DNA of 64,000 nucleotides from an uncultured Enterobacterales bacterium (GTDB lineage: Bacteria > Myxococcota_A > UBA796 > CAJQPC01), in contig CAZRYF010000011.1 in NCBI GenBank assembly GCA_964604165.1, positions 21,552-85,551 of the forward strand, written 5' to 3'. Position 1 is the first letter of the stretch. Each line of letters opens with the position of its first letter. Below, one piece after another: positions 5,753 to 63,867 of the stretch. A model generated the notes under the pieces. That model was not told the origin of the DNA, made no database searches, and saw nothing but the letters and a program-made list of their open reading frames with translations. Both the position numbers and the translations under genes were made by a program.

Positions 5753-6372
5753 TGGTGTGGCTCCTTGTGTCCATCTCCCTCGGGGAGACACCTCCACCTG
5801 CCAGGGGGGAGTCCGTGGGAGAGCCCGTGGGGACTCCCGTGGGGACTCCAGTAGGAAGCACCGTGGGGGAGGGGGTGGGCCTACCGGTGGAGATGACTCC
5901 AGTGATTGGCGAGCGGCTGACACCTGAGCAAGTCGTAGAAGAACCCCTGGACCTCGAACAAGCCGCCCGGCACGCGATCGAGGCCCTCTGTCACGCCCGC
6001 GACGCCACCCACATGGCCCAACTGGTGGCCCCTTTTATGGTGCGTCACTCCAATGGAGTCACCTTGGAGTCCCCCCCTTCCAGCGCCGACCTCGCGCGGC
6101 TCTACGGAGCCTTCGCCGACATCCAGGTCAATGTACACACCGTGCTGGTTGAGGCCGACCGAGTGGCATTACAGAGCACCTGGTCTGTACGCACCGACGT
6201 GGCCGCGGAGCCCGCATCCTTTAGCGTGGCGCTGACCGGTCGGTTTGAGAACGGACAGCTCGTGGAGACCTGGGAGACCTGGGACAGGTCGGTGGTGGAG
6301 ACGATCCTGGAGACTCCGGCTCCACCGTCTCGCAGGGCTATCCTCCCGCGGCGGCGATCAACAAGGCCCTGA
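5749..6372 (+). CDS. SnoaL/NTF2-like (ester cyclase-like) protein with short Pro-Val-Gly repeat N-terminus
   Basis: ATGATG overlap with the upstream stop. EPVGTPVGTPVGSTVGEGVG repeat. The C-terminal part (VRHSNG...LYGAFADIQVNVHTVLVEADRVALQSTW...FENGQLVETWETWD) looks like an NTF2-like fold. Confidence 0.55.
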   Translation: MMVWLLVSISLGETPPPARGESVGEPVGTPVGTPVGSTVGEGVGLPVEMTPVIGERLTPEQVVEEPLDLEQAARHAIEALCHARDATHMAQLVAPFMVRHSNGVTLESPPSSADLARLYGAFADIQVNVHTVLVEADRVALQSTWSVRTDVAAEPASFSVALTGRFENGQLVETWETWDRSVVETILETPAPPSRRAILPRRRSTRP

Positions 6373-7036
6373 GAGCCTCGTAGTTGGTTGCGTCTGGCAT
6401 GCCGTCTCCATCGGTGTCCTGGGTCAACTCAGTCTCCCCGAGGCTGTTTCCCGTGAGGTTGAAGACCCCCACCTGGACATTCTCACCATCGAGGATCACC
6501 ACATCCCGATAGGTGATTGCCCAGTCGTGCCAGACATCCACAGCTTCGGTGTCTTGCAGTAGTGGTAGATCGTGTTCGTCCGTGGCGAGCACCACAGCGT
6601 CCTGCTGATCAGGAGGACCGAAACCATCCTCGTTGATGGCCAGGAGGACAATGTCCAGATGAGGTCGATCCCTGGCGATCTCCTCTTGCAGAGCGTCCAG
6701 GTAGCCGAACTGGCTACGACAATACGCTCACGTGGCATGCATGAAATACCACCCGGAGACTTTTTGCATGTGATCTCGGGGGGATACAATCTGTAAATAC
6801 GTGGAAGACGTTGTGTTGAGGTCTTCCAGGCCGAAGTCCGGCATGGGGGGCTGGTTCGTGTCCGTGTCGCTGTCGGCGTCGGCGTCCGCGTCGGAATCAG
6901 CGTCCGCGTCAGTGTCGGCGTCAGAGTCGGCGTCCGCTTCTGAGCCCGTTTCGTTGGGGCGCGGCGCTTCTTTGCCTGTACAAGCCACACCAAGCCCGAA
7001 AAGTCCCATCCAGAGAAGTGGCAGCCGAACGTTCAT
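6338..7036 (-). CDS. Thioredoxin-fold (TlpA/redoxin-like) lipoprotein, candidate selenoprotein with U-x-x-C motif (in-frame TGA 6728-6730)
   Basis: ORFs 6728..7132 and 6338..6595 are in the same frame and joined by one TGA. The sequence reads ...KVSGWYFMHAT-U-AYCRSQFGYLDALQEEI...WAITYRDVVILDGENVQV. The lipobox is LFGLGVAC, followed by an acidic DA/DS/DT linker. No start codon or Shine-Dalgarno lies just after the TGA. A hairpin follows 10 nt downstream. Confidence 0.75.
6701..6730 (-). promoter_or_regulatory. UGA recoding site plus SECIS-like hairpin
   Basis: mRNA reads UGA GCGUAUUGUC GUAGCC-AGUUC-GGCUAC. It has a perfect 6-bp stem (6701-6717), a 5-nt loop with G at position 2, and the loop starts 16 nt after the UGA. 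Confidence 0.55.
6857..6940 (-). repeat. Coding acidic repeat (EADADSDADTDADADSDADADADSDTDT)
   Basis: Imperfect 6-nt periodic GAY-(GCN/TCN/ACN) array read from the sequence. Confidence 0.85.
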
Positions 7037-7830
7037 GAACGACCAGTATAGGGCCGACCCTCTCCATCCACCAGGCACAGGAAATCTCCGAACACTCTCT
7101 GGAAGGTCTTCGGGGCTTCCAGGTGGGCGCAATGTCCCGCATCCGGAATGTTCATGGCACGAGCTTGGGGGATTCTTCGCGCCATGTCCTCGGCAATGGC
7201 CCGAAACTTCCCGTCCTCCTCCCCAGAGAGAAGAAGCGTAGGCACTTCAATCCGATGGAGTTCCTTCCACACGGAAGGCATGACACCCGTTCCAACCCCC
7301 CTGAGGCTGGACGCCAATCCGCCCGCATGGTGCTCAGCCCGGCCCGCCCGCATCCTTTCCGCTGTGCCCCGGGCGATCCTCGCTTGGGACTGCACCATGG
7401 GGTGATGCCTCCACTCCCTGAGAAACGCCGCGGCCCCCAGAGACTCAATTCGATCTGCCAGAGCCCGATCAACGTCTGCTCTGGCCTGTCGTTCAAGGGG
7501 ATCTGACAGGCCGGCCGTCGCGCCCACACAGACAAGCCCAGCCAATCCCCTTGGCCGCCGGGTGGCCCAACTCAAGGCGATCCTGCCCCCGAAGGAGTAC
7601 CCCAGGACCACAAAGGCTCCCCATCCCAGCGATTCCACCTGGGCTTCCAATCCCCGGATCACAGCTTCCATTTCGACGGGGCCGTCTACAGGAACCGGCC
7701 CATGTCCCGGCAAGTCAGGGGCCACCCACTCCCTGTCCAAGTCCTCCAGCAGCGTCTGAAAGTCCGTCCCTCTTCCCGTGAAGCCATGCAGGGCCAACAC
7801 CGGCGTCCATTCCGAAGCCTCCCCCCTCAC
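7033..7830 (-). CDS. Alpha/beta hydrolase (MenH-like)
   Basis: LALHGFTGRG, the nucleophile elbow GYSFGG, and C-terminal AGHCAHLE. It has a GTGA overlap with the upstream gene and an ATGA overlap with the downstream Sec-thioredoxin gene. Confidence 0.8.
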   Translation of the reverse strand: MRGEASEWTPVLALHGFTGRGTDFQTLLEDLDREWVAPDLPGHGPVPVDGPVEMEAVIRGLEAQVESLGWGAFVVLGYSFGGRIALSWATRRPRGLAGLVCVGATAGLSDPLERQARADVDRALADRIESLGAAAFLREWRHHPMVQSQARIARGTAERMRAGRAEHHAGGLASSLRGVGTGVMPSVWKELHRIEVPTLLLSGEEDGKFRAIAEDMARRIPQARAMNIPDAGHCAHLEAPKTFQRVFGDFLCLVDGEGRPYTGRS

Positions 7831-8537
7831 CCGTCTTCCTCCCGGTACATGGGCAGGGCTTCACCATGGACCGTCGCCCGCAGCTCCTCAAAGAGGTCTT
7901 TCATGAAGCCCGTCATGTGCGTGACCTTCTCCTGGACTGCCCTGAGGTGCCACACCAGCTCCAACTCCACCACTCCCTCGTCCGCAGGCCATGCCACGAT
8001 GGACCCCTCCATCAAGGTGATGAATGCGGTGCCCTCAGTCTTGGAAAACCGCACGCCCAAGGCCTCGTGCGTTTCCTGTCCTTCCTGTTCCCTGCCCATC
8101 CGCCAGTCCACGTCAAACTCCACCGTGACCACGTCGTGCACCACGTTGTGCACCCGAAAGGACGCATCGAAACCAGGGTCCACATTGGCCACAAAAGTCC
8201 ACTCGTCCACCGCCCGACGATCGACCAGGATCTCCTCCATCTGCAAGGCCATCCAGACCTCCTCCAAGGTCGTCTGCAGGTAGCCCCGGCCATGGGCCCA
8301 GATGTAGTCCTCAGACTCGCCATCCACCAGAAGAAGCTCCTCCGGCTTGCCCTCTCCTTCCGGAACCGGAGCTGTACTGGCCTCCAGCGGCTCGAGTCCC
8401 GAGGGAAACACAACCTCCTTGTCTTTGAAGATTCCCCGGCCGTCCCCACCGTGACACCCCACCAGAAAAAACACCCAGAAGAGAGAAGAAGCCCCGGCAA
8501 GACCCAGCTCCCTCCCCCACCCTCTGTTTCGTGACAC
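7827..8537 (-). CDS. Hypothetical lipoprotein
   Basis: ORF 7827..8627 trimmed to GTG 8537 (TTG 8543 is also possible) so that it clears the divergent transporter gene. The lipobox is LFWVFFLVGC. No family recognised. Confidence 0.6.
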   Translation of the reverse strand: MSRNRGWGRELGLAGASSLFWVFFLVGCHGGDGRGIFKDKEVVFPSGLEPLEASTAPVPEGEGKPEELLLVDGESEDYIWAHGRGYLQTTLEEVWMALQMEEILVDRRAVDEWTFVANVDPGFDASFRVHNVVHDVVTVEFDVDWRMGREQEGQETHEALGVRFSKTEGTAFITLMEGSIVAWPADEGVVELELVWHLRAVQEKVTHMTGFMKDLFEELRATVHGEALPMYREEDG

Positions 8538-8638
8538 AGGCAACCGGATCCTCCTCCTCTTCCAGGGTATTCGTGCCGGCCCTCCGGGGTCCACCCTTCC
8601 ATTGCAAACGCTTCTTCTCCGGGTCACATTGGCTTCCT

Positions 8639-16136: not shown

Positions 16137-17326
16137 GCTGCGCGGACCGGCACACGACGCAGGTGAAGGGCAAACCTCGCGGCACAGGCAATCCACAACA
16201 CCATGGCGGAAGGCGCCCAGACAAAGGGGTCCTTGTCGGACACCGGGTGTTGGAGTCCGCTCGCCATCAGCACCCCAATGGAGAGCATCGAAAGGGGAAA
16301 GGACCAGCGAATCGGGTCCCGGGAGGCGGGCCAGCAAACCACCCACCCAATGACCGGCAGGAGCAAAACCGCCTCGTAGTTGGTGTAGCTCATGGCCCCG
16401 TTTGCGCCGAATCCTGCCAGCACCAACCCCATGGCCGCTGCATCCAGCTCCCGGTCAGGTCGCTTGCGCCAAAGAGTCAACATGGGAAGCATCGTGGCCA
16501 AGAGAAGCAGCATGCCCCGTTGACTGAAGATCCACGCAGCAGCTCCGACAATGGGTTCCGCAGGCACCCCATCCACCGTGCCAAACCGGGAATGGGCCAC
16601 CAGGGCCCGGGTGAGGCCCAAGTAACGAAAGGGGTCCCAGGAAGGCACACACCAGAACGTTCCAGCCAGCACCAGCGCCCCCACCCCGACCGCCGCAGCG
16701 AGGATTCGCCAGTGCCGACGCAAACAAACCACGGAAACAAGCACCCCCGGAAGGAGCTTTGCTGCAGCCCCAAGCGCCAAGACCACTCCAGCCGACCGAT
16801 CGCGGGAGCGAGCCACAAGCAGGAGGATCGCGCAGTTGCAGAAGACAAGCACCAGGTTGGTCTGGCCCAGGTCCAGGGAGAGGCGTGTCACGAAGAGACG
16901 GGAAAAAACCAGCAGGCTTCCCATCGCGGCCACCGCCCCCCAGGCCCGACTCCTCACCGGGACCGCAAAAGCCACCAGGGGGGCGCTTCCCACCAGAAGC
17001 ACCAGGAGCACCAGGCGCCAGGCCCTTGCGAGCACCTCAAAGGGAATCTGCCGAAACGGCATCATCAGGAAGCCCCACGTGGCCGGATAGGCGTTGTGGG
17101 AGCTCCAGTGCCGAACCCCCACCTCTCCCAGAATGCGCTGGATGTTCCCCGGGTCGTTTGGATCCACCCCTTGGGCCACGGCATGGGCCCCCGCATAGAC
17201 GGGCACCAGGTCCAGTCCCACCATCGGGGTGGTCAGGGTAGACAAGTCGGCCAGCCCCATGACCTGCCAGGCTGCAACCCCTCCAAGCACCGCCGCCAGG
17301 CACCATGGAAGGGCCTGGTACTTCAC
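16133..17326 (-). CDS. Polytopic membrane glycosyltransferase, GT87/DUF2029-like
   Basis: About 10 TM helices, with DLVPVYAGAHAVAQGVDP near the N-terminus. It has an ATGA overlap with the selD stop. Confidence 0.5.
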   Translation of the reverse strand: MKYQALPWCLAAVLGGVAAWQVMGLADLSTLTTPMVGLDLVPVYAGAHAVAQGVDPNDPGNIQRILGEVGVRHWSSHNAYPATWGFLMMPFRQIPFEVLARAWRLVLLVLLVGSAPLVAFAVPVRSRAWGAVAAMGSLLVFSRLFVTRLSLDLGQTNLVLVFCNCAILLLVARSRDRSAGVVLALGAAAKLLPGVLVSVVCLRRHWRILAAAVGVGALVLAGTFWCVPSWDPFRYLGLTRALVAHSRFGTVDGVPAEPIVGAAAWIFSQRGMLLLLATMLPMLTLWRKRPDRELDAAAMGLVLAGFGANGAMSYTNYEAVLLLPVIGWVVCWPASRDPIRWSFPLSMLSIGVLMASGLQHPVSDKDPFVWAPSAMVLWIACAARFALHLRRVPVRAA

Positions 17327-18366
17327 GGAAAACGCACCCGACTGGGCCCGGCCATGATCTCTCCAATCACGGACACCCCTTGCACGCCAGCCACAACCAG
17401 GGCTTCGGTAAGCTCCTCCACCGCCTCCGGTGCTACGGCCGCGAGCAGTCCCCCGGAGGTCTGCGCATCCGCCAACAAGAGTCGCGTGGTCTCCGGCACC
17501 TCCCCAAATTCCACCCGGTCTTCCACAGACAAAAGATTGGCCCGAGACCCCCCGGGAATACAGTTCTCGGCTGCATGGCGCCGAGCCGATTCCAGAATGG
17601 GCACCGCACCTACCTGCAGATCCGCCCCCACCCCCGAAGCCTCCAACATCTCCAACAAGTGCCCCAACAATCCAAACCCAGTCACATCCGTCAAGGCATG
17701 GACCTTCGTATGGAGCCGGGAAAAGACCTCCCCTGCAGCCCGGTTGAGGGTCGACATCAGGTTCGTGACTTCCTCCCTCTCCGCTTCCGACGCCAGCTCC
17801 CGCTTCAGCGCAGTGGTCACCACCCCGGAGCCCAACGGCTTGGTCAGGATCAAGGCATCCCCCGGTTGCGCTCCAGCATTCGCCAACACGGCGTCGGGCG
17901 AGACAGTCCCCACGACCGCGAGGCCGTACTTGGGAACCGGATCCTCAATGGAGTGACCGCCAATGACCAGCGCCCCTGCAGCATCCACGACATCGGCCCC
18001 TCCACGGAGAATCTCCCCCAAGAGATCCATGGGCAATTCCTTGGTGGGAAAGGCCACCAGGTTCAACGCCACGAGAGGCGTCGCCCCCATGGCCCAGATG
18101 TCGGACAGAGCGTTGGCGGCGGCGATTCGCCCGAAGTCATAGGCATCATCGACCACAGGGGGGAAGAAGTCGGTCGTCACCACGAGCGCGGTGGTCTCGT
18201 TCAGCAGATACACCCCTGCGTCGTCGCGGGTCGAAGAACCCACGAGCACCCTTTCATCGGTAAGGAGCGGCAACTTGCGCAGGACCTGCGCCAACTCCGC
18301 AGGGCGGAGCTTGCTCGCTCAACCAGCGCCGTGGCTGTACCTCGTGAGCTTGTGTCGATCTGACAT
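17323..18366 (-). CDS. selD: Selenide, water dikinase SelD, Sec-containing (TGA 18319-18321 read as U)
   Basis: The body matches SelD throughout (TRDDAGVY, TTDFF, DFGRIAAANALSDIWAMG, GGHSIEDP, TKPLGSG, TDVTGFGLLGHL, QTSGGLL). The frame stays open upstream across one TGA to ATG 18366, giving MSDRHKLTRYSHGAG-U-ASKL. This aligns with E. coli LTQYSHGAGCGCK, with the U at Cys17. Confidence 0.9.
18277..18321 (-). promoter_or_regulatory. UGA recoding site plus SECIS-like hairpins in selD
   Basis: The mRNA after the UGA contains AGCUCCGC-CCU-GCGGAGUU (18293-18311). It is followed by GCGCAG-GUC-CUGCGC (18277-18291), whose loop starts with G about 33 nt after the UGA. Confidence 0.55.
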
Positions 18367-31379: not shown

Positions 31380-32243
31380 TCAGGACACCATCGAGGGCTG
31401 TCGCCTGTCCAGCCAGGGCGTCCACCAGCCCACCGTCAACGGAAGGTAGAACACCATCATGCCGACGGAGAACATACCCAGCTTCATGCTCCAGGCGATC
31501 CCTACGTGCAACACCATAATCGGCGGAATCCAGTAGCGACTCCAGCGCGTAAGAAGGAGGAAGGCGGAGAGCTCCAACGCAATGGTTCCCCAGCCCAGCG
31601 CACGCAGCAGCCACCACCAGGGGGCAGCGGCGAGAGGATCCAGGCTTGATGCCATGGGATCTGCCAGGATGCGGTAGAGAACGGGCATGCCACTCACCGC
31701 GAGCCAGCCCGGCTGTTGGGCCAGCTTGGCGACACCTGCGGACGTGTAAACAAGGACCAACATCCATCGGAGCAGAATCAAGGGCCAAGCCCCCACCTGG
31801 TCGGCCGGCGCCCCCGGGGCAAAGGACCACCTCCTGTGGCTGCCCGAGAAGAGAAGAAAGAGCAGCACCGTTCGCAGCATCCGGTCAATGCCGCGATCCC
31901 CTGGTGGGTACAAGTGCCCCAGTTGGGCCCACAGCAGCACTGAGATCAGAATGGCCGGCCGGGTGCCCACCCCCAAAAGCACGCAAACAAGGGCCCCGAG
32001 GGTCAGGAAAAAGACCGGCGGCCCCATGGTGGCCGGGTCAATCCAAAGAGACGGATCGGAGAAACCGGAGAGCCCCCCGGCTGCAAAACTCCTGTACATC
32101 ACGTCCACCCAACCCAGGTGGGCCACCCGTGCCAGGTCCAGAATCGCCACCAATGCCACCGCAATGCGCAGGGCGGCCAAGGCCCGGGCATCCACGGTCC
32201 GCCCACATCGCTCCACCCAGAGCTGCCAGGCCCGGAGAATCAT
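31380..32243 (-). CDS. HTTM-domain (vitamin K-dependent gamma-carboxylase-like; SdpB-family fold) membrane protein
   Basis: ORF trimmed to ATG 32243 (ATGA overlap with the upstream stop). It has VDARALAALRIAVALVAILDL at the N-terminus and is a polytopic, Trp-rich membrane protein. Confidence 0.65.
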   Translation of the reverse strand: MILRAWQLWVERCGRTVDARALAALRIAVALVAILDLARVAHLGWVDVMYRSFAAGGLSGFSDPSLWIDPATMGPPVFFLTLGALVCVLLGVGTRPAILISVLLWAQLGHLYPPGDRGIDRMLRTVLLFLLFSGSHRRWSFAPGAPADQVGAWPLILLRWMLVLVYTSAGVAKLAQQPGWLAVSGMPVLYRILADPMASSLDPLAAAPWWWLLRALGWGTIALELSAFLLLTRWSRYWIPPIMVLHVGIAWSMKLGMFSVGMMVFYLPLTVGWWTPWLDRRQPSMVS

Positions 32244-32830
32244 GGCATCCTCACAAGCCAAAGAGGTTCTTGGGCCACAATGCGATGGGACTCCTCCATG
32301 CGAGTTCCGGGAAAGTCCCCCACGAGAAACAACAACGCCACCTCTTCCGCCTGGGGATAATCCTCCCGAGCCTTCTCCACGATGTATCTGGAGATCCCCT
32401 TCCAGTTTCGGGAACGGCGAGACCGGGTGGTGGTCTCCAGCACTGGCCGGATCTTGCGGCTGCCAAGCTGTGGCCCAAGCCACTGCAACACCGGGTCACC
32501 CGTGCGGTAGACCGGCACCCCGTCGACCTGGATCTCCATGCGGCGCACCCGCCTGGGCCCATCCCGGTAGAGGTTCCAGGTCTGTGCGATGCGAAAGGGC
32601 TTCTGAATCGGCTCCAACAAGCGCACCAGGGGCATGCGAATGCGACGGTTGAAGCCGTAGACTCCCTCCGCCACGCGCATCCCCGCTGCGCCCACGCGCT
32701 CCTCCACCCGGTCTCGATCCCGCTGACTCTTCAAGGCGTTGGAGGGAATGAAATCCAGTCCGGGGGTGGCGAGGATGCCCATCGCCACCGCCACACACCC
32801 TACAAGTGCTGCGCGCAGCTCCGGCCTCAT
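32240..32830 (-). CDS. Hypothetical membrane-anchored protein coupled to the HTTM protein
   Basis: ORF trimmed to ATG 32830. It has one N-terminal TM helix, and the rest is basic. No family recognised; whether it is SdpA-like is untested. Confidence 0.55.
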   Translation of the reverse strand: MRPELRAALVGCVAVAMGILATPGLDFIPSNALKSQRDRDRVEERVGAAGMRVAEGVYGFNRRIRMPLVRLLEPIQKPFRIAQTWNLYRDGPRRVRRMEIQVDGVPVYRTGDPVLQWLGPQLGSRKIRPVLETTTRSRRSRNWKGISRYIVEKAREDYPQAEEVALLFLVGDFPGTRMEESHRIVAQEPLWLVRMP

Positions 32831-32867
32831 GGAAGACACTGCCGCAAATTGGCCCCGTGACTCAGGG

Positions 32868-33344
32868 TCAGGCGACGCCGAGCAGCTGACCCTGAAGCTC
32901 GCTGCCAACCGGAACCACCGCCGCGGAGGCGTTGTAGGTCACCAACCCAAGGGCCGCGTCCCGGATGGCCTCCATCAACCTGCTCGGCGGCATTCCATCC
33001 AGCACCCCAGTGGCCTCTTCGGTCAGACCCACGAGTGGTCCCAGGGAAAACGCCGGCGAGCTGCTGCTCTCCGCCCCACCCAGAACCCCCGTGTCCTTGC
33101 CGGTGGAAGAGCCCTCCATGCCCGCAAATGCGCCGGAGACCTGCCCGGTGGTAGAGCCTTCCATACCCGCGAAGATCCCTCGCCCGCCTTCTTGCAGAGA
33201 GCTCGCGCCGGCGTTCGAGTCGGCCCGCGCCGAAGAGCCCGTTTGCGAAGCTCCACCGCCCAGTCCCATCAGGCCTGCGCCCGCAGCGGACGCCGCCATG
33301 CCTATGCCCATCGCAGCCACGATGAGATGTTCCCACCCAACCAC
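32868..33344 (-). CDS. Gly/Ser-rich hypothetical protein with N-terminal hydrophobic segment and internal FAGMEGS(T/S)TG repeat
   Basis: GTG start at 33344. Third positions are moderately GC-rich. The competing ORFs (32965..33360 on plus, 32827..33450 on minus) are Pro/Arg-rich shadow-type. Confidence 0.45.
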   Translation of the reverse strand: MVGWEHLIVAAMGIGMAASAAGAGLMGLGGGASQTGSSARADSNAGASSLQEGGRGIFAGMEGSTTGQVSGAFAGMEGSSTGKDTGVLGGAESSSSPAFSLGPLVGLTEEATGVLDGMPPSRLMEAIRDAALGLVTYNASAAVVPVGSELQGQLLGVA

Positions 33345-34154: not shown

Positions 34155-35125
34155 TAGTGACCCCGCTCCCCCGCATGGTTCACCAGATCGATCACCGTGT
34201 CCCGCAGAGTCTCCAATGGATCTCGGGGCACCCATCCGAGCTCCCTCCGGGCCCGAGACGAGTCGACGTACCAGGTGTGGCAGCCCATCACCACCTCTTC
34301 CCGTGGAATCTTGGCGCCGAACCCGAGCCCCTCGTCCTTACCCAGATCCGGCAGAAAGGAGAGCACATTCCGGGTAAAGCGCGGCATCTTCATGCGCACC
34401 GGTGGCTTGTTGGAGATGCGGGCCAGGCGACTGTAGAACGCCTCGAACGTCATGTTGGCGGCCCCCAGCAGATACCGCCGACCGCTCATTTCCCCCTCCA
34501 CGGCGGCAGCGACAGCTTCTGCCACATCGCGCACATCCACAAAAGACAGGCCTCCGGAGGGAATCGCGGTGAGTTTGTCCTCCAGGAAGTACCGCACGGT
34601 TTGCGTGGCACCTCCGGTTTCATCCCCCGGCCCCAGGAGCAGTGAGGGGTTGATGCTGATGACCTCCAGATCCTGGGCCGCCAAAACTGCCTGCTCGCTG
34701 AAGAGCTTGGATCGGTAGTAAGGCCAGGATCCGATGAGGGAGAGTGGAGGCGGAGAGTCCTCGGTGGCGACGAAGTCCGCGTCCTCCGAGCAGGCCACCG
34801 TACCGGAGCTCGATATGTGCACCAGACGCTTGACCCCGGCCTCGCGGCACGCAGCCAGGACATTCTCGGTGCCCAACACATGGACCTTCCACATTTCCTG
34901 GGCGTCCACTGGCTCGTGGCTGACCCGGCCCGCCGCGTGAACCACCACCTCCACGCCGCCCATCGCTTTGACCAGGGCGTCCTTGTCCAGGACATCCCCG
35001 GAGGCGGTCTCCACGCCCAGCTCCACGGGCCGCCGTACCAGGGCCACCAGATCATGGTCCCCATCGAGCCGCGCGAGAAGGCGACGCCCCAAGAACCCCG
35101 TGGCACCGGTCACAAGTATCTTCAT
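34154..35125 (-). CDS. NAD-dependent epimerase/dehydratase family protein
   Basis: MKILVTGATGFLG, plus YYRSK (the YxxxK motif). It has an ATGA overlap with the megasynthase stop. Confidence 0.85.
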   Translation of the reverse strand: MKILVTGATGFLGRRLLARLDGDHDLVALVRRPVELGVETASGDVLDKDALVKAMGGVEVVVHAAGRVSHEPVDAQEMWKVHVLGTENVLAACREAGVKRLVHISSSGTVACSEDADFVATEDSPPPLSLIGSWPYYRSKLFSEQAVLAAQDLEVISINPSLLLGPGDETGGATQTVRYFLEDKLTAIPSGGLSFVDVRDVAEAVAAAVEGEMSGRRYLLGAANMTFEAFYSRLARISNKPPVRMKMPRFTRNVLSFLPDLGKDEGLGFGAKIPREEVVMGCHTWYVDSSRARRELGWVPRDPLETLRDTVIDLVNHAGERGH

Positions 35126-38100
35126 GGCCGCCGAGCCTCATCGGAAGGGCCAAAGCTGAACACCTTGGACAACTCCATCAGGAGCGGGATCTCGTTGGTC
35201 TTGATCTTGCCTGACACAAACTCTGGGACCGAAGGCACATAAGCCTCCCGCACGATGCGCATCAGCATGTCCGGGGTGGTCTTGACCACGCAGTCCGCGC
35301 GACCTCCCTTGGGCCGCCCGCGCCAGACCTCGCAGCCATCTTGCTCCACGCTGACGGTCCACTTGCCGCTGTCTGCACCTCCAGAGGCACCGTTCTGGCC
35401 CTCCAAGGAGAAGTACCAGGACAAGGGCTTCTCCACCGCCTCGGGCTGAAAGCGCCCCTCAAACTCCTCAAAGAGCGCCTGGACCCCATCATCGTGGTCC
35501 TCCTCGACCGGCCCATCCTGCGGTTCCAGGGTACTCACATCCAGCACCGAGCCCTCTCGCAAGGTGGCCACAGCCTGGCGTAGCAGCCGGGATGCCTCCC
35601 GGGCGGAGTCCGCTGCACGCATGCCTTCGGTGAGGCGGTGCAGCTCGCTCGCCAGGACAGGCGCCCCGATGCGTACCGTGACCGCCCGGCCCCGGGGAAC
35701 AATCGCCCCCTTGGGCAGCACCTCAAAGGTGCCATCCAAAAAGATGGGGAGCACATCGACCCCTGTCTCCAGGGCCAGCTTGCCCACGAGGGGCTTGAAG
35801 GTTCCCAGGGTGCCGTCCAGACGGCGCGTACCTTCCGGGAACAGGAGCACCACGTTGCCCCCGTCGATGACCTCGCGGGCTTCCTCAAAGCTCCTGCGGA
35901 AGCTGCCGGAGCGATCCACCGGTTGGAGGTTGGTCAGCTGCTCGAAATAGGCCACCACCCACTTGTTGCCCTCAAAGAAGTAGTCCTTCGCCGCCAGTGC
36001 CACGAGCTTCTTTCCGTAGGCGCCCAGCGCGTACTTCACCAGCCCCATGTCCAAGTGAGAGCAGTGGTTTGAAACCACGATGACCGGGCGGTTCTGGGGA
36101 ATGAAGGCCCGACCGGTCACCTGGGTCCTGAGCAACTTCCCGTAGAGTTCCCGTTGGCTGGTTCGCAAAACGGTGCGGAGTGGCTGCACGAGGGGAGCAA
36201 AGATCTTGACCGTCTCCCGCACGTCTTCCTCGACCACGATCTGGGGCCGAGGCGCAGCCACGAGCGCCTCCACATCCGCCACGGTCTCGCATCCCCCCAG
36301 CTCCTCCACCGAAGGCATGCCTTCAGTGACGCCATCCAATGCTGCTGAAAGCTCCACCCACATCAGGGAGTCAAAGCCCAGGTCGGCCTGCATGCCAGTG
36401 CCCTCTTGCACCATGGAGAGATCCACTCCAGCCACCTTTGCGATGGCACCCCGCACAGGACCCGACCCCGCGCGCACGCCGGCGACCGGCTGGTTGGCGC
36501 TGGCGATGCGCTCGAGGATCTTCTTCACGTCGTTCCGCTTGACCTTCCTCGTGGCGGTCCTCGGCAGATCTGCGTCCACCATGTGGACCACAGCGGGCCG
36601 GAAGGTGACGGGCAGCTTGGCGATGGCGTTCTTCAAATTCTCCCGCGCCCGTGCGTGCACCGTGTGGCGATCCAGGTCCTCCTCTGTGCCCGGCACAGCA
36701 AGGAGCCCCAACCGCTCTCCTCCGCGGGGGTCCTCGATGCCCACCAGGGAGTACTCCTCCACATACTCCACGGTGCCCAAAAGGGTCTCCACATCGTCCA
36801 GGTAGATGTTCTCCCCGCTGGAGGTCACCACCACGTCCTTGGCGCGGCCCACAATGCACAGGCGCCCCTTGTGGTCCAGGCGCCCCAAGTCACCTGTCAA
36901 GAGCCAGCCATCCGCATCGATCACCGCATCGGTGGCCTCGGCGTTTCCGTAGTAGCCCTTCATCACGTTGGGCCCCTTGGCCACCACCTCACCCACCCCG
37001 TGTTCATCCGGATCGCGCACCTCGAGGGTTACCCCGGGAATGGCCTTTCCCACGTGCCCCAACTGGCTGCCGGGATGGGCCTGGGCCACAGTCAACACGG
37101 GCGCAGCCTCCGTAAGGCCATAGCCCTCGGAGAGGTGGAGCCCGAGCCCCTGGAACAGCTCCTGGGTGTCCTTGGGCAAGGCCGCCCCCCCGGAGATCAG
37201 AAACCGAATGTTCCCCCCCAGGCGACCGTGCACGGACCCAAAGAGGATCTTGCCCACATCCAGACCGGTCTTCTTGCCGAGCATGCGGTTCAACGCCGTT
37301 CCCATGTCGAAGGCAAGCTGGAAAGCCGGCCCCTTGTCCTTGACCTGCCCCAGAATACGGCGCTCCAAGAGCTGCCAAAGAGCAGGGACCCCCACCATTC
37401 CCGTGATGCGCCCCTCCTTGAGGCCCCGGGTCAGGCTGTCACCGGTGAGCTCATCCAGGTACAGAATCCGGACCCCCCGGGACAAGGGCAGCAACAGGCC
37501 GCAGGTGAACTCAAAGGTGTGGTGCAAGGGAAGGACCGAGAGCATGCGGTCGTCTTCCTTGAGCTCAAACAAAGTACCCAGGCTCGCGATGAGGGCCGTG
37601 AGGTTGCCGTGGGTCAGCATGACCCCCTTCGGCAGCCCGGTGGTGCCGGACGTAAACAAGATGCTGGCCACGTCCTGGGAGGTCGCTTTCCGGGCGGGCA
37701 GTCCGTCGGTGGGTCCTTCCGCAGCGACCACGTGCATGTCCAGCATCCGGCCTGTCACCACATCCCCAAAGGCATCCCGGGCCTCTGCATCCAACAGCGC
37801 TCCCCAGATGGAGGCAGCGGCAGCAATGTTGGCAGCCTGCCCCTCCGAGAGTGTGGTCTCCACAGGCACCACCACCCCGCCGGCCAACAGGACCCCAAAC
37901 CAGCACACCACCCAGTCTGGATGGTTGAGACCCGACAGCATCACCCGGTCCCCGTCCGAGAGTCCCGCTTCCTGCAATCGGACCGCGGCCGCCCGCGCAC
38001 GCCCCCGAAGGGCCCCGAAAGACATGCGGGAGAGGCCATCGGACTGCACCTGCATCAGGGCTGGTGAGTGCTCGTAGCGCTCCGCAATCTCATCCAGGAA

Positions 38101-39792
38101 GCTCAACAGGTCGTCGTAACTCCGGAGGGCCTTGGATGGACGATCGAGCTTCTCCTCGATCAAGGGAATCACGTGGCGCTCAATGCCTGGGACATGAACC
38201 TCCATGGTCCAGTGCCGCCAGTCGATCTCCTCCGGGTTCCAGACCAGCTTCTCCCTGTCGGCATCATTCAGCCGAGCGAAGGCCGACCGGGTATTGGCCG
38301 CGGAGAAACGGTAGTTGTGGGTGGCCATGAACGGCACAAACTGGTCCATAATGAACGCGGTCTTTTCGTTGGCCTTGCCAAACCCCTTCAAGATGCGGGA
38401 GGAGGGCTCCAACAGAGGCTTGAGGGCCAACACCTCCGCACCCACATCGTCCAGCACCTCGCTGACCCCAAAGGCCGTCTCCGCCATCCACCGGGGGCCC
38501 CACTTGTAGTAGAGGTCCGGAGAAATCGGCGTCGGCCCGTAGTGCATCTGCACCCAGTTTCCCAGGGGGCTGCCGGTGCCCTTGTTCTTGAAGTAGCGGC
38601 GCTTGTACAGGGAGACCAACTCGATGAACCGGTAGGTAAAGAACGGGTTCGAATCTGAGCTTCCAAACTGGTAGACCGGCTTGGCTGTGCCCTCGAGAAG
38701 CTCCGCCATCGCCAGCATCATGCCGGAACAGACCAGATCCACGGGGATGACATCCAGGACCGCATCCGGGTGGGATGGGTAGGCCAACAGCCCCTCCATG
38801 CCCATGTAGATCAGCGGAGCCGAGGTGTTGATTCCCTCGTTCCACCCGGGAAAAGGAAAGGCCAGGGAGGACTCAATGACCGCCGGCCGCACAATGGTGC
38901 AGGGCAGCCCCGATGCACAGAGCACCTGCTCGCCGATGGACTTGGTGTAGGTATAGACGTTGTGCCAGCCCCAGAACTGTGCACGCTCCAGACCCGCCGC
39001 GATCAGGCGATCCGACTCGTAGCGCCGGCGCACCTTGGCCAGCTCATCCTCAAGGGCGGTGCCCCGTGCCGGCTCGTCACTGGCCAGGAGGTTCTTCTTT
39101 GCATCCGCAAGAAACTGGGACTCCCGGAAGGAGTCCCGAGAGCGGTGGCGCACATTCTCCACGAGATCGACGCACTCGGCGATCTCCTGGTCGGCGCTCC
39201 AGTGCTTTGGATCAAGGTCCCCAGCCTTTGGAAAGGGAAACTCGTAGGGATGGACCTCGTCGATCTGGCCGGTACGATCCCCCGCCACGTAGCAGGTGCT
39301 CGTGTGCAGAAAGGCGATGTCCCCCAGGTCCTTGGCCAGAGCGACCAAAGACTGCATCCCAAAGGCGTTGACCTTCAGGGCTTCATCCAGGGGCGGGTTG
39401 AAATCCACAATCCCCGCGGAGTTGACCAGCACGTCCACGCGGCCCCGGAGCTTTTCTCGAAGCGCCTCGGAGACACCGGCGAACTCCTGGGACACGTCCC
39501 CGGCGATGGCGGTCACCTTCTCCTTCAGGAACGCCTCGTAGGCGGCCCCTGGATACCGCACCCGCAAAGGCTCAAAAACCCCCGCCGGGGCCACATCCGC
39601 CCAGAACCGCGCCTCAGAGTCCTGGTCCTTGCGGGGGCGCACCATGAGCCAGACATGGCCGATCTGCGGATAGTGGGTGAGCAGCATGGAGAGCCAGGTC
39701 TTTCCCAGAAAGCCCGTGCCTCCCACGACCAGAAGCTCCTTGCCTTCCAGCAGGGCGCCGACATCGAGTCGGCCTGTGCCGTTCCCGCTCAC
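35122..39792 (-). CDS. Multidomain lipid megasynthase, ElbD-like: FAR-type reductase / fatty-acyl-AMP ligase / ACP / PlsC-type acyltransferase / SCP2
   Basis: N-terminal VVGGTGFLGK marks the NAD_binding_4 reductase. FTSGTTGLPKG marks the adenylation domain and LGFDSLMWVEL the phosphopantetheine site. NHCSHLD plus FPEGTRR mark the AGPAT domain. The C-terminus ADCVVKTTPDMLMRIV...GKIKTNEIPLLMEL is SCP2-like. It has a GTGA overlap with the upstream gene. Confidence 0.85.
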   Translation of the reverse strand: MSGNGTGRLDVGALLEGKELLVVGGTGFLGKTWLSMLLTHYPQIGHVWLMVRPRKDQDSEARFWADVAPAGVFEPLRVRYPGAAYEAFLKEKVTAIAGDVSQEFAGVSEALREKLRGRVDVLVNSAGIVDFNPPLDEALKVNAFGMQSLVALAKDLGDIAFLHTSTCYVAGDRTGQIDEVHPYEFPFPKAGDLDPKHWSADQEIAECVDLVENVRHRSRDSFRESQFLADAKKNLLASDEPARGTALEDELAKVRRRYESDRLIAAGLERAQFWGWHNVYTYTKSIGEQVLCASGLPCTIVRPAVIESSLAFPFPGWNEGINTSAPLIYMGMEGLLAYPSHPDAVLDVIPVDLVCSGMMLAMAELLEGTAKPVYQFGSSDSNPFFTYRFIELVSLYKRRYFKNKGTGSPLGNWVQMHYGPTPISPDLYYKWGPRWMAETAFGVSEVLDDVGAEVLALKPLLEPSSRILKGFGKANEKTAFIMDQFVPFMATHNYRFSAANTRSAFARLNDADREKLVWNPEEIDWRHWTMEVHVPGIERHVIPLIEEKLDRPSKALRSYDDLLSFLDEIAERYEHSPALMQVQSDGLSRMSFGALRGRARAAAVRLQEAGLSDGDRVMLSGLNHPDWVVCWFGVLLAGGVVVPVETTLSEGQAANIAAAASIWGALLDAEARDAFGDVVTGRMLDMHVVAAEGPTDGLPARKATSQDVASILFTSGTTGLPKGVMLTHGNLTALIASLGTLFELKEDDRMLSVLPLHHTFEFTCGLLLPLSRGVRILYLDELTGDSLTRGLKEGRITGMVGVPALWQLLERRILGQVKDKGPAFQLAFDMGTALNRMLGKKTGLDVGKILFGSVHGRLGGNIRFLISGGAALPKDTQELFQGLGLHLSEGYGLTEAAPVLTVAQAHPGSQLGHVGKAIPGVTLEVRDPDEHGVGEVVAKGPNVMKGYYGNAEATDAVIDADGWLLTGDLGRLDHKGRLCIVGRAKDVVVTSSGENIYLDDVETLLGTVEYVEEYSLVGIEDPRGGERLGLLAVPGTEEDLDRHTVHARARENLKNAIAKLPVTFRPAVVHMVDADLPRTATRKVKRNDVKKILERIASANQPVAGVRAGSGPVRGAIAKVAGVDLSMVQEGTGMQADLGFDSLMWVELSAALDGVTEGMPSVEELGGCETVADVEALVAAPRPQIVVEEDVRETVKIFAPLVQPLRTVLRTSQRELYGKLLRTQVTGRAFIPQNRPVIVVSNHCSHLDMGLVKYALGAYGKKLVALAAKDYFFEGNKWVVAYFEQLTNLQPVDRSGSFRRSFEEAREVIDGGNVVLLFPEGTRRLDGTLGTFKPLVGKLALETGVDVLPIFLDGTFEVLPKGAIVPRGRAVTVRIGAPVLASELHRLTEGMRAADSAREASRLLRQAVATLREGSVLDVSTLEPQDGPVEEDHDDGVQALFEEFEGRFQPEAVEKPLSWYFSLEGQNGASGGADSGKWTVSVEQDGCEVWRGRPKGGRADCVVKTTPDMLMRIVREAYVPSVPEFVSGKIKTNEIPLLMELSKVFSFGPSDEARRP

Positions 39793-41414
39793 TTGGAGGC
39801 CTCCGCTTCAATGGCTGCGGGCACCGGATCCGGCGTCACATCCGCAATGAAGACCGGTGGCAGGTGCAGGCAGGTGATGTCCGGATCCTCCGGCGCAGTC
39901 TCCTTGGCCATGCGCAGCGCCTCGTCAAAGTTGCGAGCGGTCTCATAGCCCAGGATGCCCGGGATGTACTCGTTGTCCGCCCCCACCACGATCACACGCC
40001 CCAGGTGTTGGCGACCGTTCTCGCCCCAGTACCACATGTAGAAGGGGTGGGCCGGATGGTAGGCGTTCCCGGTCCGGTACATCTGGACGAAGGCCGGGTT
40101 CTTGGCGAACTCGCGCTCAAAGCGCTTGTGCAGCTCCATGGCATCCCGGGTCTGGGTGAGGAACTTGTGGAAGAACTCCACGTAGGCCGGGTGCTGCTCC
40201 CGATCGAACTTGTCCGTGCAGGGGTGAAAGATGATCAGCGTCCCGCCCTTTCGAACTACCGGCGCCCCTCGATGCAGGTTGTAGAGGTAGCCCTCTGCCA
40301 TGACCGCCACCAGGAGCGGATTCAGGACGCTGTTCACGTTGTAGGGACTGATGTAGGGGATGCCGGAGATCATGATGTCGCACTGGCCCTCAATGGGCAC
40401 CAGGTACTGGTCGTAGGCCTTCTTCATTGTGTGTTCGTGGACGGCTTCCGTCTCGCCGGCAAACACGCCCGTCACGCCGTAGGGGGCGGGGACCTTCGAG
40501 AAGATGGCCTGTCGAGCGGGGGCCGGCAGAATGCCAAGGGTCCGCACCAGTCCCTTGAGGGCGCGCTCTTCGGCAGCGCTCAAGTCATCTTCATTCTTGG
40601 AGAGGAACTCCAGTGGCTTGTCGAACATGCGGTTGTTGACCGTGGTCTCCACCGTGAACACCTTGCAGTGGCGGTTCACCAGCTTCCCCATGCGCACGAT
40701 GCGGGTGTTCAGCTCGGAATCGTCCGGATCCATGTACGTACCGCTCTTGCGGATGGCCTCTGGGGTGTGGTGGGCGCACAGGCTTCGATACCCGCAAAGC
40801 CCCACCGCCACTGACTTGTGGCCGCCATCCATGGGGACGAAGTTGAGGTTCACGTAGATGATGAGGTCGCTCTCCGCCGCCCTGCGGCTGATCTCCACCT
40901 CTTCGCCTTCCTCGGTGGTGCCCAGGAAGGTCATGCCATCAGGCTTCTCAGCGTCGTGGTTGTAGAGGCGATCCGGCCAATAGTCATCAAAGATCTTCTT
41001 GCCGGTGATGTGCTTGACCTCGGGACCGGTCATGGGCCGGTGCAAGGAGGTGGCAATCACCATGTGGATGTCCGTGACCGCGTAGTCGGCCAGCTGCTCC
41101 AACACGACCTCCAACACCCGCTGCCGAATGTCCGGCTTCTTCATGGGGGGAAGCGGCAAGGAGATGTCATCCATGGCGATGGTGACCTTCATGCCTGGCT
41201 TCAACAGCGCGTGCAGTGGCTCGCAGCCGTAGGGGTGATCGATGGCATACCGAATGGCTGCATCCACGTCTTCAAGAGGGGCAAGGGGGGGCTTCGGGTA
41301 GATCACCCGGGTGCCCACCGGCAAGTCCACCTCCACCAGCTGGGTCCCGGAAAAAAGGACCCGCGGCTTGGAGCGGTGATCGGTCGTGATGACACAGGGA
41401 TGCGGCGTGCTCAT
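39789..41414 (-). CDS. LarA-N (lactate racemase N-terminal, DUF2088) domain protein
   Basis: 541 aa. The KVTIAMDDISLPLP and GGHKSVAVG regions resemble the LarA-like fold. This assignment is from memory of the family. Confidence 0.55.
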   Translation of the reverse strand: MSTPHPCVITTDHRSKPRVLFSGTQLVEVDLPVGTRVIYPKPPLAPLEDVDAAIRYAIDHPYGCEPLHALLKPGMKVTIAMDDISLPLPPMKKPDIRQRVLEVVLEQLADYAVTDIHMVIATSLHRPMTGPEVKHITGKKIFDDYWPDRLYNHDAEKPDGMTFLGTTEEGEEVEISRRAAESDLIIYVNLNFVPMDGGHKSVAVGLCGYRSLCAHHTPEAIRKSGTYMDPDDSELNTRIVRMGKLVNRHCKVFTVETTVNNRMFDKPLEFLSKNEDDLSAAEERALKGLVRTLGILPAPARQAIFSKVPAPYGVTGVFAGETEAVHEHTMKKAYDQYLVPIEGQCDIMISGIPYISPYNVNSVLNPLLVAVMAEGYLYNLHRGAPVVRKGGTLIIFHPCTDKFDREQHPAYVEFFHKFLTQTRDAMELHKRFEREFAKNPAFVQMYRTGNAYHPAHPFYMWYWGENGRQHLGRVIVVGADNEYIPGILGYETARNFDEALRMAKETAPEDPDITCLHLPPVFIADVTPDPVPAAIEAEASK

Positions 41415-41423
41415 GAAGGCTTC

Positions 41424-42101
41424 CTACTGACCGGGGGTGGGGCGATCCACATTCAGAATGGGCCACTGGTAGGCCAGCGCCAGGCGGCGCAGCTTCTTGT
41501 CGGGATTGATGCATTGGGGGTGGCCCACCACCGAGAGCATGGGCACATCGGAAAAGGAGTCGGAGTAGGCCTGGCAGTGGGCAAGATCTTCCCCGTGTTC
41601 CCGGGCGTCGTCCGCCAGAATGCGGGCCTTGGTGGGACCGGCCACCACAGGGCGAAGGAGCTTTCCGGTGGCGTAGCCATCCTTCATCTCCAGGCGGTTG
41701 GTGATGGCATCATCCGCCCCCAGGTACCGGGCCAGGGGGGTCACCGTGACGTCCAGGGAGCCGGTGACCAGGACAATGCGGTATCCAGCGATCTTGCACT
41801 TCTCGATGAGGTCCACGGTTCCCCGAAAAATGCGGGGGCGAATCACCGCTTCAAAGACATCTTCCGAGAGGAGCACCATGCGGTCCTCGCTCATGCCCTT
41901 GTAATGGGAAAAGAGCATCTCGTTGAAGAGGCGCCGATCCCGAAGCTCGGCCGCCGCCATCAAAGGAGCCCAGATGGCGGCCCGACCCATGCGCCGCAGG
42001 CTGTCCATGGGGGACGACTGGTTCGCCAGGTACATGATCGTCGGGTGCACCAGATTGGTGCCGACCAAAGTCCCGTCGACATCGAAGTAGGCTGCGGGCA
42101 C
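41424..42101 (-). CDS. HAD-IB family hydrolase (SerB-like phosphatase)
   Basis: ORF trimmed to GTG 42101 (GGAGG 4 nt upstream), giving MPAAYFDVDGTLV. Later motifs are VTGSLD and YSDSFSDVPML. Confidence 0.8.
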   Translation of the reverse strand: MPAAYFDVDGTLVGTNLVHPTIMYLANQSSPMDSLRRMGRAAIWAPLMAAAELRDRRLFNEMLFSHYKGMSEDRMVLLSEDVFEAVIRPRIFRGTVDLIEKCKIAGYRIVLVTGSLDVTVTPLARYLGADDAITNRLEMKDGYATGKLLRPVVAGPTKARILADDAREHGEDLAHCQAYSDSFSDVPMLSVVGHPQCINPDKKLRRLALAYQWPILNVDRPTPGQ

Positions 42102-42195
42102 TCTGCCTCCAAGGCGCGGGCGAGTAACCCGCCACCCCACCCCCTTCCACATGTGGGGGGCGGGGCCGGGCTACCCTTTCGAGGAGGAACTCTCC

Positions 42196-51328: not shown

Positions 51329-51411
51329 GAATCAAAAACCTCTGTGACAAAAGCAGGTGGGGGATTTCAACACACCTTGGGCACAGGCGCAAGCGCCTGC
51401 CGGCCCTCGAT

Positions 51412-63765: not shown

Positions 63766-63867
63766 GCACAGGGGACGGGGTGTTTCCCCTGCGCCACAGA
63801 TCTGTCACTTTCCCGTCACACGGCTTCCATAGATTGGCACTCGACTCCCACTCCAACGGAGGAGAAC

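Follow-up and report, generated by a model that had tools for sequence, protein, structure and literature searches.

A predicted lipid-anchored selenoprotein of the thioredoxin-fold TUGYCR family, annotated as two fragments

Introduction

The window analysed here, a 64,000-nucleotide (nt) stretch of contig CAZRYF010000011.1 (assembly GCA_964604165.1, positions 21,552 to 85,551) deposited as an uncultured Enterobacterales bacterium, raises the question of whether the TGA codon at 6728-6730 on its minus strand ends a gene or encodes a selenocysteine (Sec, U) within the active site of a longer one. Gene callers give two products at 7036..6338, of 102 and about 84-85 amino acids (aa), in every assembly examined, and two mechanical open reading frames (ORFs), 6728..7132 and 6338..6595, both lie in the frame of this candidate selenoprotein gene. 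A first-pass annotation of the window had proposed that these two ORFs are one gene split by a single TGA, and both the coordinates and the common frame were confirmed. We propose, with a probability of roughly 0.87, that 7036..6338 is one gene, encoding an exported, lipid-anchored, thioredoxin-like Sec-containing redox protein. The family to which it belongs, NCBIfam NF053656, is already curated yet essentially undescribed; the gene is a new member of it and founds no new category, and the value of the result is that of a corrected annotation, not of a discovery.

A frame interrupted at a conserved, predicted catalytic position

On the minus strand, a single 232-codon frame extends from an ATG at 7036 to a TAG stop at 6338-6340, and its sole internal TGA is preceded by 102 codons and followed by 129. 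The translation around the TGA reads VSGWYFMHAT-U-AYC-RSQFGYLD. The features on which the proposal is based are the following:

6338..7036, minus strand: complete predicted selenoprotein gene, 232 codons plus TAG with one UGA; matches NF053656 and is identical in six assemblies
6728..6730, minus strand: in-frame UGA read as Sec, U103; 75 homologous sites have TGA here and 6 have Cys; in the ResA alignment it falls on the leading Cys of CEPC
6719..6730, minus strand: redox motif U-A-Y-C (U103 to C106) inside T-U-A-Y-C-R, from the translation and the family match; family consensus WYFGHAT-U-GYC-RSQFGY

With U entered as C, residues 65-227 of the protein match NF053656.1 (redoxin_TUGYCR), whose curated name is 'TUGYCR motif thioredoxin fold (seleno)protein', with an E-value of 1.1e-52 and 177.8 bits for a cut-off of 100, and the alignment spans positions 1-144 of the 146 of the model. 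The motif of the window protein agrees with TUGYCR at five of six positions, Ala replacing Gly at a position that varies among other members as well (A, S, P, V and others).

The relatives of the protein in a collection of 5.8 billion proteins are mostly fragments: N-terminal pieces stop at ...WYFAHAT and C-terminal pieces start just past the motif, and a few full-length Cys homologues are present, for example P0001 with GCAGCR in place of the motif. The contigs behind three of the fragments carry an in-frame TGA in the same column (T-U-R-G-C-T, L-U-G-Y-C-S). Genome contigs were then scanned with one genome per species, which gave 80 loci, and two metagenome loci carrying distinct copies were included. 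In this set the U column holds a TGA at 75 distinct homologous sites and a Cys codon at six, with invariant and nearly invariant columns on either side of the UGA. The hosts, as labelled, are Pirellulaceae and other Planctomycetota, Polyangia, Nannocystis, Plesiocystis and other Myxococcota, and further Eisenbacteria, Gemmatimonadota and Verrucomicrobiota. Homologues do not end at the TGA, since the 75 sites read through and the remaining six have a Cys aligned with it. The earlier suggestion that the TGA stands where the first Cys of a CxxC motif belongs is thus borne out by these six sites as well as by the alignment with the first Cys of the ResA motif. The Cys forms make up two clades nested among the Sec forms in a neighbour-joining tree (drawn without support values), which suggests two Sec-to-Cys replacements.

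Further support comes from the closest relative of the window, the locus L005 (contig CAZSZE010000086.1), which is about 82% identical at the nucleotide level and syntenic over 12.5 kb. Between the two, the 129 codons after the UGA differ by 32 synonymous and 20 non-synonymous codon changes, and the differences fall on the first, second and third codon positions as 9, 13 and 40, a bias towards third positions. Coding selection persists 3' of the UGA. The first-pass annotation had described the third positions of these stop-free codons as coding-like. The open run by itself is only mildly improbable at 63% GC (we estimate a chance of about 3%), and the weight of the case rests on homology and not on ORF length.

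A candidate selenocysteine insertion sequence downstream of the UGA

The hairpin GUAGCC-AGUUC-GGCUAC that the first-pass annotation had noticed 10 nt after the UGA was found at 6717..6701, and it has the properties of a bacterial selenocysteine insertion sequence (SECIS; bSECIS for the bacterial model):

6701..6717, minus strand: candidate SECIS hairpin starting 10 nt 3' of the UGA, with AGUUC as its loop and a 6-bp stem, GUAGCC/GGCUAC; from folding, covariation and bSECIS criteria

The hairpin is 17 nt long and its loop begins 16 nt past the UGA. Folded alone it reaches -9.2 kcal/mol (z = -4.2), and none of 200 shuffled sequences folds as well; since the 71 nt around it are without unusual stability (z = -0.2), stability alone would not carry the case. 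Covariation is more telling. Starting at the UGA, a 45-nt block can be aligned across 76 Sec forms with no gaps, columns 14-19 facing columns 30-25, and 95.8% of the stem cells pair in the 75 distinct Sec-form rows. Compensatory changes occur in five of the six stem pairs, both sides having changed in 61 cells, and the loop is AGUUY throughout. None of 500 shuffles reaches this level of pairing, and sliding the 3' arm by 1-3 nt lowers it to 25-52%. The Sec forms keep on average 5.75 of the six stem pairs and the six Cys forms only three or four, so that the hairpin covaries where the UGA is present and decays where Cys has replaced it, as expected of a SECIS. The published bSECIS criteria (PMC13188914) ask for an apical loop of 3-9 nt, an upper stem of 4-16 bp, a G at either of the first two positions of the loop, 16-37 nt between UGA and loop and a minimum free energy of at most -7.5 kcal/mol; the hairpin agrees with every one of them, having a 5-nt loop, a 6-bp stem and a G at loop position 2, followed by U, at the distance and energy given above. 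From the covariation, the hairpin may be the bacterial SECIS on which SelB and Sec-tRNA(Sec) act.

Within the conserved peptide R-S-Q-F-G-Y, it is the R-S and G-Y codons that make up the stem. At the position following the Gly, where Y, F, H, S, R or L occurs, substitutions go along with changes in the R/S codons, and thus part of the conservation of this peptide is an RNA constraint. Like the SECIS of the Escherichia coli fdhF type and the bSECIS model, the element is a small stem-loop in the coding region directly 3' of the UGA, with a G(U) in the apical loop 16-37 nt away and all numerical criteria in agreement; unlike the fdhF-type element, it has an unrelated sequence and only 6 bp, and it is encoded within a conserved peptide, where RNA and protein constraints overlap. 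The family offers a clean natural experiment: its candidate SECIS, encoded within a conserved peptide, shows covariation as long as Sec is kept and has degenerated in both Cys clades.

Some contigs carry two TUGYCR paralogues close together, namely L001 (TGA at 1167 and 1960), L013 (5276 and 6115) and L061 (6115 and 6877). Those of L001 are directly adjacent, and each paralogue in the three contigs has its own UGA and hairpin. In another locus (L003, 5771-5902, minus strand), a 43-aa gene call matching Pfam Rdx (SelW/SelT-like) adjoins a planctomycete TUGYCR gene and is probably another selenoprotein truncated at a UGA.

Fold and predicted chemistry

6356..6844, minus strand: thioredoxin-fold redox domain (ResA/TlpA/AhpC-TSA superfamily), residues 65-227; from NCBIfam, the family profile, Pfam matches of members and AF2/Foldseek of a homologue

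A TlpA/redoxin-type layout had been suggested at the outset, and the homologues agree with it. A profile made from 35 family members and compared with PDB sequences matches ResA (E 3.8e-4), so that the U/C column falls on the leading Cys of its CEPC motif. For the Cys homologue P0001, an AF2 model computed with the window fragments in the alignment has a pLDDT of 83-95 over the domain, and Foldseek searches with it return ResA, DsbE/CcmG, the pneumococcal surface lipoprotein Etrx2 and other TlpA-like proteins, with TM(target) values of 0.66-0.82 among them. The C-terminal half contains a nearly invariant Y-R-D. Its Arg is R177 in full-length numbering (R115 within the domain) and its Asp D178 (D116), both invariant or nearly so. 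The Tyr of Y-R-D presumably stands in place of the cis-Pro of ResA/TlpA, and the alignment from the ResA profile ends before this region. For the C-terminal half, the best alignment is with the Tpx thiol peroxidases, weak and below significance (E 0.2-0.5); in this alignment, the family Arg (R177) falls on the Arg of the Tpx 'tAR.VVVLD' motif, which we take to be the catalytic Arg. The sequence comparisons thus combine a predicted Sec, located where thioredoxins have their nucleophile, with an Arg of the peroxiredoxin kind in one domain.

We propose the following pathway. The UGA at 6728-6730 would be decoded as selenocysteine, the 17-nt stem-loop 10 nt downstream acting as SECIS. The protein would then be exported by its lipoprotein signal peptide and acylated on Cys19, and the acidic D/A/S/T linker would keep the redox domain away from the membrane, two steps suggested by sequence motifs and by the export and anchor signals of the family. 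Most likely, the Sec in the nucleophilic first-Cys position of U-x-x-C would cycle between the selenolate/thiol and the selenenylsulfide state, and the protein would work as an extracytoplasmic thiol-disulfide reductase or as a peroxide-reducing enzyme. Between these roles of the predicted selenolate/selenenylsulfide oxidoreductase, disulfide reduction is the more likely, at somewhat better than even odds, followed by peroxide reduction, with metal handling a distant third.

The same gene with the same Sec decoding could have a peroxiredoxin-like chemistry, in which the selenolate would attack peroxides, C106 would resolve the selenenic acid and the Arg of Y-R-D would be catalytic. The conservation of R177 and D178 speaks for it, as do the matches of 20 of the 35 members to Pfam AhpC-TSA (8 match SCO1-SenC and 6 Redoxin), the position of the family Arg in the Tpx alignment, the apparent replacement of the cis-Pro by Tyr and the fit with the 'Prx-like' UxxC selenoproteins described earlier (PMC1088965). 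However, the Tpx similarity is not significant, and the top profile and structural matches are the disulfide reductases ResA, DsbE and Etrx2. The position of U also argues against it, being that of the thioredoxin nucleophile and not the peroxidatic position of T-x-x-U. Peroxiredoxins are expected to have a P-x-x-x-T/S-x-x-C(U) motif and a conserved catalytic Arg; the window protein has T-U-x-x-C together with the conserved R177, and Pfam AhpC-TSA, despite its 20 matches in the family, does not match it. We regard peroxide reduction as a possible role, at odds well below even.

Alternatively, the U-x-x-C could bind a metal without redox turnover, as in a copper handler of the Sco/TlpA type or a scavenger of mercury or copper. 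Eight of the 35 members match SCO1-SenC, CxxC and UxxC are also metal-binding motifs (PMC1088965), and a protein with MopE-type copper-binding repeats is encoded in the window, about 42 kb away. Against this, the SCO1-SenC matches of the eight members are weak (best E 4.5e-5), and no conserved link to cytochrome oxidase or copper genes was seen in the 80 loci. The metal site of the Sco family consists of a CxxxC motif and a distal His, which the U-x-x-C spacing does not resemble. A metal site is thus improbable, and an extracytoplasmic oxidoreductase remains the reading that we prefer.

Termination, readthrough or selenocysteine insertion

17323..18366, minus strand: selenophosphate synthetase gene selD, with a UGA of its own in frame at 18319-18321; TIGR00476 E 3.6e-111 for the part after the UGA, and translation

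Whether the organism can insert Sec at all is addressed by a second gene of the window. As the first-pass annotation had claimed, the window encodes a Sec-containing SelD, whose in-frame TGA stands in the context YSHGAG-U-ASKL and which matches TIGR00476; the SelD family is itself listed among the selenoproteins (PMC1088965). Because the SelD of the window carries this Sec site, the organism probably decodes UGA as Sec, and reading the UGA of the redox gene in this way likewise flags the organism as a Sec user. Two hairpins lie 3' of the selD UGA, and the second, GCGCAG-GUC-CUGCGC, with a GU loop 33 nt past the UGA, fits the bSECIS spacing.

If the TGA at 6728-6730 were a true stop, the locus would hold a pseudogene or two small genes, one for a lipoprotein stub of 102 aa and one for an 85-aa product restarting at GTG 6595. 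The gene callers annotate such a split in every assembly, 63% GC makes it unremarkable for some 130 codons to lack a stop, and termination at the UGA probably competes with Sec insertion. Against a true stop stand the TGA in the same column at 75 distinct sites across several phyla, with Cys in six, the strong protein conservation and third-position substitution bias past the TGA, and a hairpin that covaries only in the TGA forms. Moreover, GTG 6595 is codon 148, beyond the active-site helix and the strand that follows it, and a restart there would remove this helix, in line with the first-pass statement that it would cut the fold. An assembly error, which would have undone the whole proposal, can be set aside because the 699-nt gene, TGA included, is present in identical copies in six independent assemblies (15 contigs carry the gene). 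We consider a true stop very unlikely. Equally improbable is a readthrough of the UGA as another amino acid, by a near-cognate Trp or Cys tRNA or in a reassigned code: selA, selB and selC were indeed not seen in the DNA searched (the window and part of the source contig), but TGA is the ordinary stop of 17 of the 30 family-supported genes of the window, which means that the code is standard and the recoding site-specific, and a UGA that coincides with a catalytic Cys, still present as Cys in some orthologues, is the classic Sec/Cys signature, accompanied by a SECIS-like hairpin with a GU loop at canonical distance and by a SelD with a well-known Sec site.

Some observations weigh against the proposal of a Sec-containing thioredoxin-like protein. 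First, neither the window nor the approximately 84 kb read of the 95-kb source contig yielded selA, selB or tRNA-Sec, and the Sec machinery is thus deduced from the Sec-containing SelD only. Second, no Rfam family matches the hairpin, either over the whole window at the gathering threshold or over 6600-6800 at E <= 10, and no general bacterial SECIS family was seen among the Rfam matches. Third, the motif reads T-U-A-Y-C-R instead of T-U-G-Y-C-R. Finally, Pfam gives only a spurious acidic-repeat match for the window protein and its domain alone finds no match among PDB sequences, so that the thioredoxin fold, as a modelled property, is attributed to it through its homologues.

The window was also scanned crudely for in-frame TGA codons with redox-type motifs, a procedure that is blind to sites lacking such a motif and missed that of SelD. 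It returned seven sites, one of which is the gene described here. Two candidates were rejected: the TGA at 31647 on the plus strand lies in a stretch (31553-33151, plus strand) that translates to Arg/Pro-rich junk, and that at 63807 on the minus strand is opposite a response-regulator gene (63067-63765, plus strand) and is not coding-like. Three more sites are antisense to family-supported genes, and the last, at 49124 on the minus strand, lies within the copper-repeat gene 48764-51331 and on the same strand as it.

Predicted export signal, linker and insertion

6980..7036, minus strand: putative lipoprotein signal peptide MNVRLPLLWMGLFGLGVA, C19, lipobox L-G-V-A-C; read from the sequence, with the lipobox rule applied by hand
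6857..6943, minus strand: acidic low-complexity D/A/S/T linker, S32-T60, between lipid anchor and redox domain; from the sequence, with only spurious low-complexity matches
6386..6427, minus strand: 14-residue insertion LTQDTDGDGMPDAT of the DxDxDG type, L204-T217; from the alignment, common only to the window and L005

The lipobox and the acidic linker named in the first-pass annotation are both present (C19; residues 32-60). The segment MNVRLPLLWMGLFGLGVA-C19 has a basic n-region (R4), a hydrophobic core and no charge in the six positions before L-G-V-A-C; it agrees with a PROSITE-type lipobox pattern, [LVI..][ASTVI][GAS]-C within the first 15-35 residues, applied by hand. Most short-form homologues have comparable signals, 26 scoring as lipobox and 15 as signal-peptide-like, and other members have PEP-CTERM or dockerin-like ends. 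The planctomycete members have long C-terminal extensions with dockerin-like repeats or PEP-CTERM ends. These signals suggest that export is a trait of the family, and the window protein is putatively exported as well. In planctomycete members such as L009, L010, L031, L038, L041 and L058, an N-terminal LE-x-R-x-(M/L)-L replaces the classical lipobox, and in two of the Cys forms the domain is the last part of a very long protein (about 1,650 residues).

Acidic linkers similar to that of the window protein occur in P0002, P0007 and others. In the window the linker is encoded by a short hexanucleotide-type repeat and in L005 by a far longer (DA)n run (about 5800-6000); as the two loci are 82% identical, the length of the linker is hypervariable. 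The acidic TQDTDGDGMPD segment, first described as a C-terminal tail, is in fact part of the 14-residue insertion LTQDTDGDGMPDAT, which precedes the C-terminal helix. No Pfam model matches it, and from its motif it may be calcium-binding.

Relation to known proteins

The window protein shares with NF053656 the U-x-Y-C-R motif, in a family that shows Sec/Cys dimorphism, and differs from it by the Ala in place of Gly, the lipoprotein leader, the acidic linker and the 14-residue DxDxDG insertion. The name TUGYCR was not found in the literature searched, and NF053656 is absent from the table of a 2026 selenoproteome review. The window protein also resembles the 'Prx-like (thiol:disulfide oxidoreductase)' UxxC selenoproteins of Kryukov, Zhang and Gladyshev, known since 2004-2005 (PMC1088965; PMC13188914, Table 1, PF00578). 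Judged by description, both groups are remotely related to AhpC/TSA and have a UxxC of the thioredoxin kind where peroxiredoxins have TxxU, and PF00578 matches 20 of the 35 TUGYCR members; the TUGYCR proteins differ by export signals, which the two articles do not describe for the 'Prx-like' group.

ResA, TlpA, CcmG (DsbE) and Etrx1-2 provide the best profile and structural matches, have the active site at the N-terminus of the first long helix, and are membrane- or lipid-anchored, facing the periplasm or cell surface, as is predicted for the window protein; unlike it, they are Cys-x-x-Cys reductases. They have a cis-Pro and are usually encoded alongside cytochrome c maturation, CcdA/DsbD or Msr genes, none of which is linked to the TUGYCR genes over the 80 loci. 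The window protein would function in the manner of these reductases, but because no linkage to maturation genes was seen and the cis-Pro is apparently absent, we did not file it under ResA/TlpA/CcmG.

The first-pass annotation had also called an extracytoplasmic, lipid-anchored selenoprotein unusual, which is too strong, given that NF053656 is curated and that exported UxxC selenoproteins were predicted before. UxxC thioredoxin-fold selenoproteins are the commonest predicted kind. Exported DsbA-like and DsbG-like selenoproteins were predicted early on (PMC1088965), and SaoB and SaoC are predicted exported selenoproteins, often lipoproteins (10.1101/2022.07.06.499078); overall, UxxC Prx-like, DsbA-like, DsbG-like and lipoprotein selenoproteins all have precedents (PMC1088965, PMC13188914, 10.1101/2022.07.06.499078). 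As in SaoB and SaoC, Sec is predicted outside the cytoplasm, whereas those proteins have unrelated folds and a CU dipeptide motif and belong to a conserved nine-gene operon of anaerobic Firmicutes.

In every public assembly examined, annotation breaks the gene, like most of its homologues, into two pieces that make no sense by themselves, and reading the UGA as Sec would restore a complete exported redox enzyme. The near-universal export or anchor signals of the family point to a use of selenium in the cell envelope of Planctomycetota and Myxococcota, where, to our knowledge, there has been little experimental work on bacterial selenoproteins. Tentatively, and with more doubt than confidence, the TUGYCR proteins might form a large and essentially unstudied class of envelope selenoproteins in mostly aerobic Planctomycetota, Myxococcota and relatives, held by lipid, PEP-CTERM or dockerin-like anchors, in which a thioredoxin/peroxiredoxin hybrid (U-x-x-C and a peroxiredoxin-type Arg) would expose a selenolate to oxidising conditions outside the cytoplasm, without the usual CcdA/DsbD-linked electron supply. 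If true, this would imply a new extracytoplasmic reductant pathway, or else a stoichiometric 'sacrificial' or sensing role.

Genomic context

7033..7830, minus strand: alpha/beta hydrolase (MenH-like); TIGR03695 206.6 bits, below the cut-off of 208.55; a local neighbour, translationally coupled through the ATGA overlap
7827-8627, minus strand: putative lipoprotein, first gene of the 'trio'; no family match, absent from the syntenic L005

The gene had been described as the last of a tightly coupled trio, with a lipoprotein and a hydrolase gene upstream. The overlaps are real: the start of the selenoprotein gene overlaps the stop of the hydrolase gene as ATGA, an arrangement also found in L005, and a GTGA overlap joins the other two genes. 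Conservation of the trio did not hold up, as L005 lacks the first gene and the hydrolase is not adjacent elsewhere; beyond the window it adjoins the redoxin gene in L005 only, L030 having one about 5 kb away on the other strand. In L005 an EamA-type transporter gene directly flanks the hydrolase gene in the absence of the first gene of the trio, and an extra gene for a 288-aa protein (6523-7389) lies downstream of the selenoprotein gene.

Over the 80 loci we found no conserved gene neighbourhood; the second largest neighbour 'cluster' is antisense-ORF noise, and sulfatases recur in eight planctomycete loci. No CcdA or DsbD gene turned up in the window or within 10 kb on either side of it on the 95-kb source contig, ccm genes were not found in the window, and neither CcdA/DsbD nor ccm genes are conserved near the 80 homologous loci. 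The window encodes a second thiol-disulfide protein, this one Cys-only (42091-43428, plus strand), 445 aa long with two tandem DSBA-like thioredoxin domains (PF01323, E 1e-67).

L005, L007, L030, L047 and L063 were deposited as 'uncultured Enterobacterales' or 'Rickettsiales' metagenome-assembled genomes, labels that look unreliable because of the 63% GC and the gene content (FHA, TPR-sulfatase, PKD/TIG, GT87). Elsewhere in the window, a gene on the minus strand (35122-39807) encodes a 1,561-aa enzyme with fatty-acyl reductase, AMP-binding, carrier protein and acyltransferase domains, followed by genes for a LarA-N-like protein (39789-41423) and a HAD hydrolase (41424-42170), both on the minus strand. 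We take its domain set to recall that of the myxobacterial ether-lipid enzyme ElbD, which would hint at a Myxococcota-like host. The copper-repeat gene mentioned above (48764-51331, minus strand) encodes a protein of 855 aa in which a lamin-tail domain accompanies six putative copper-binding repeats of the MopE type (E 1e-52).

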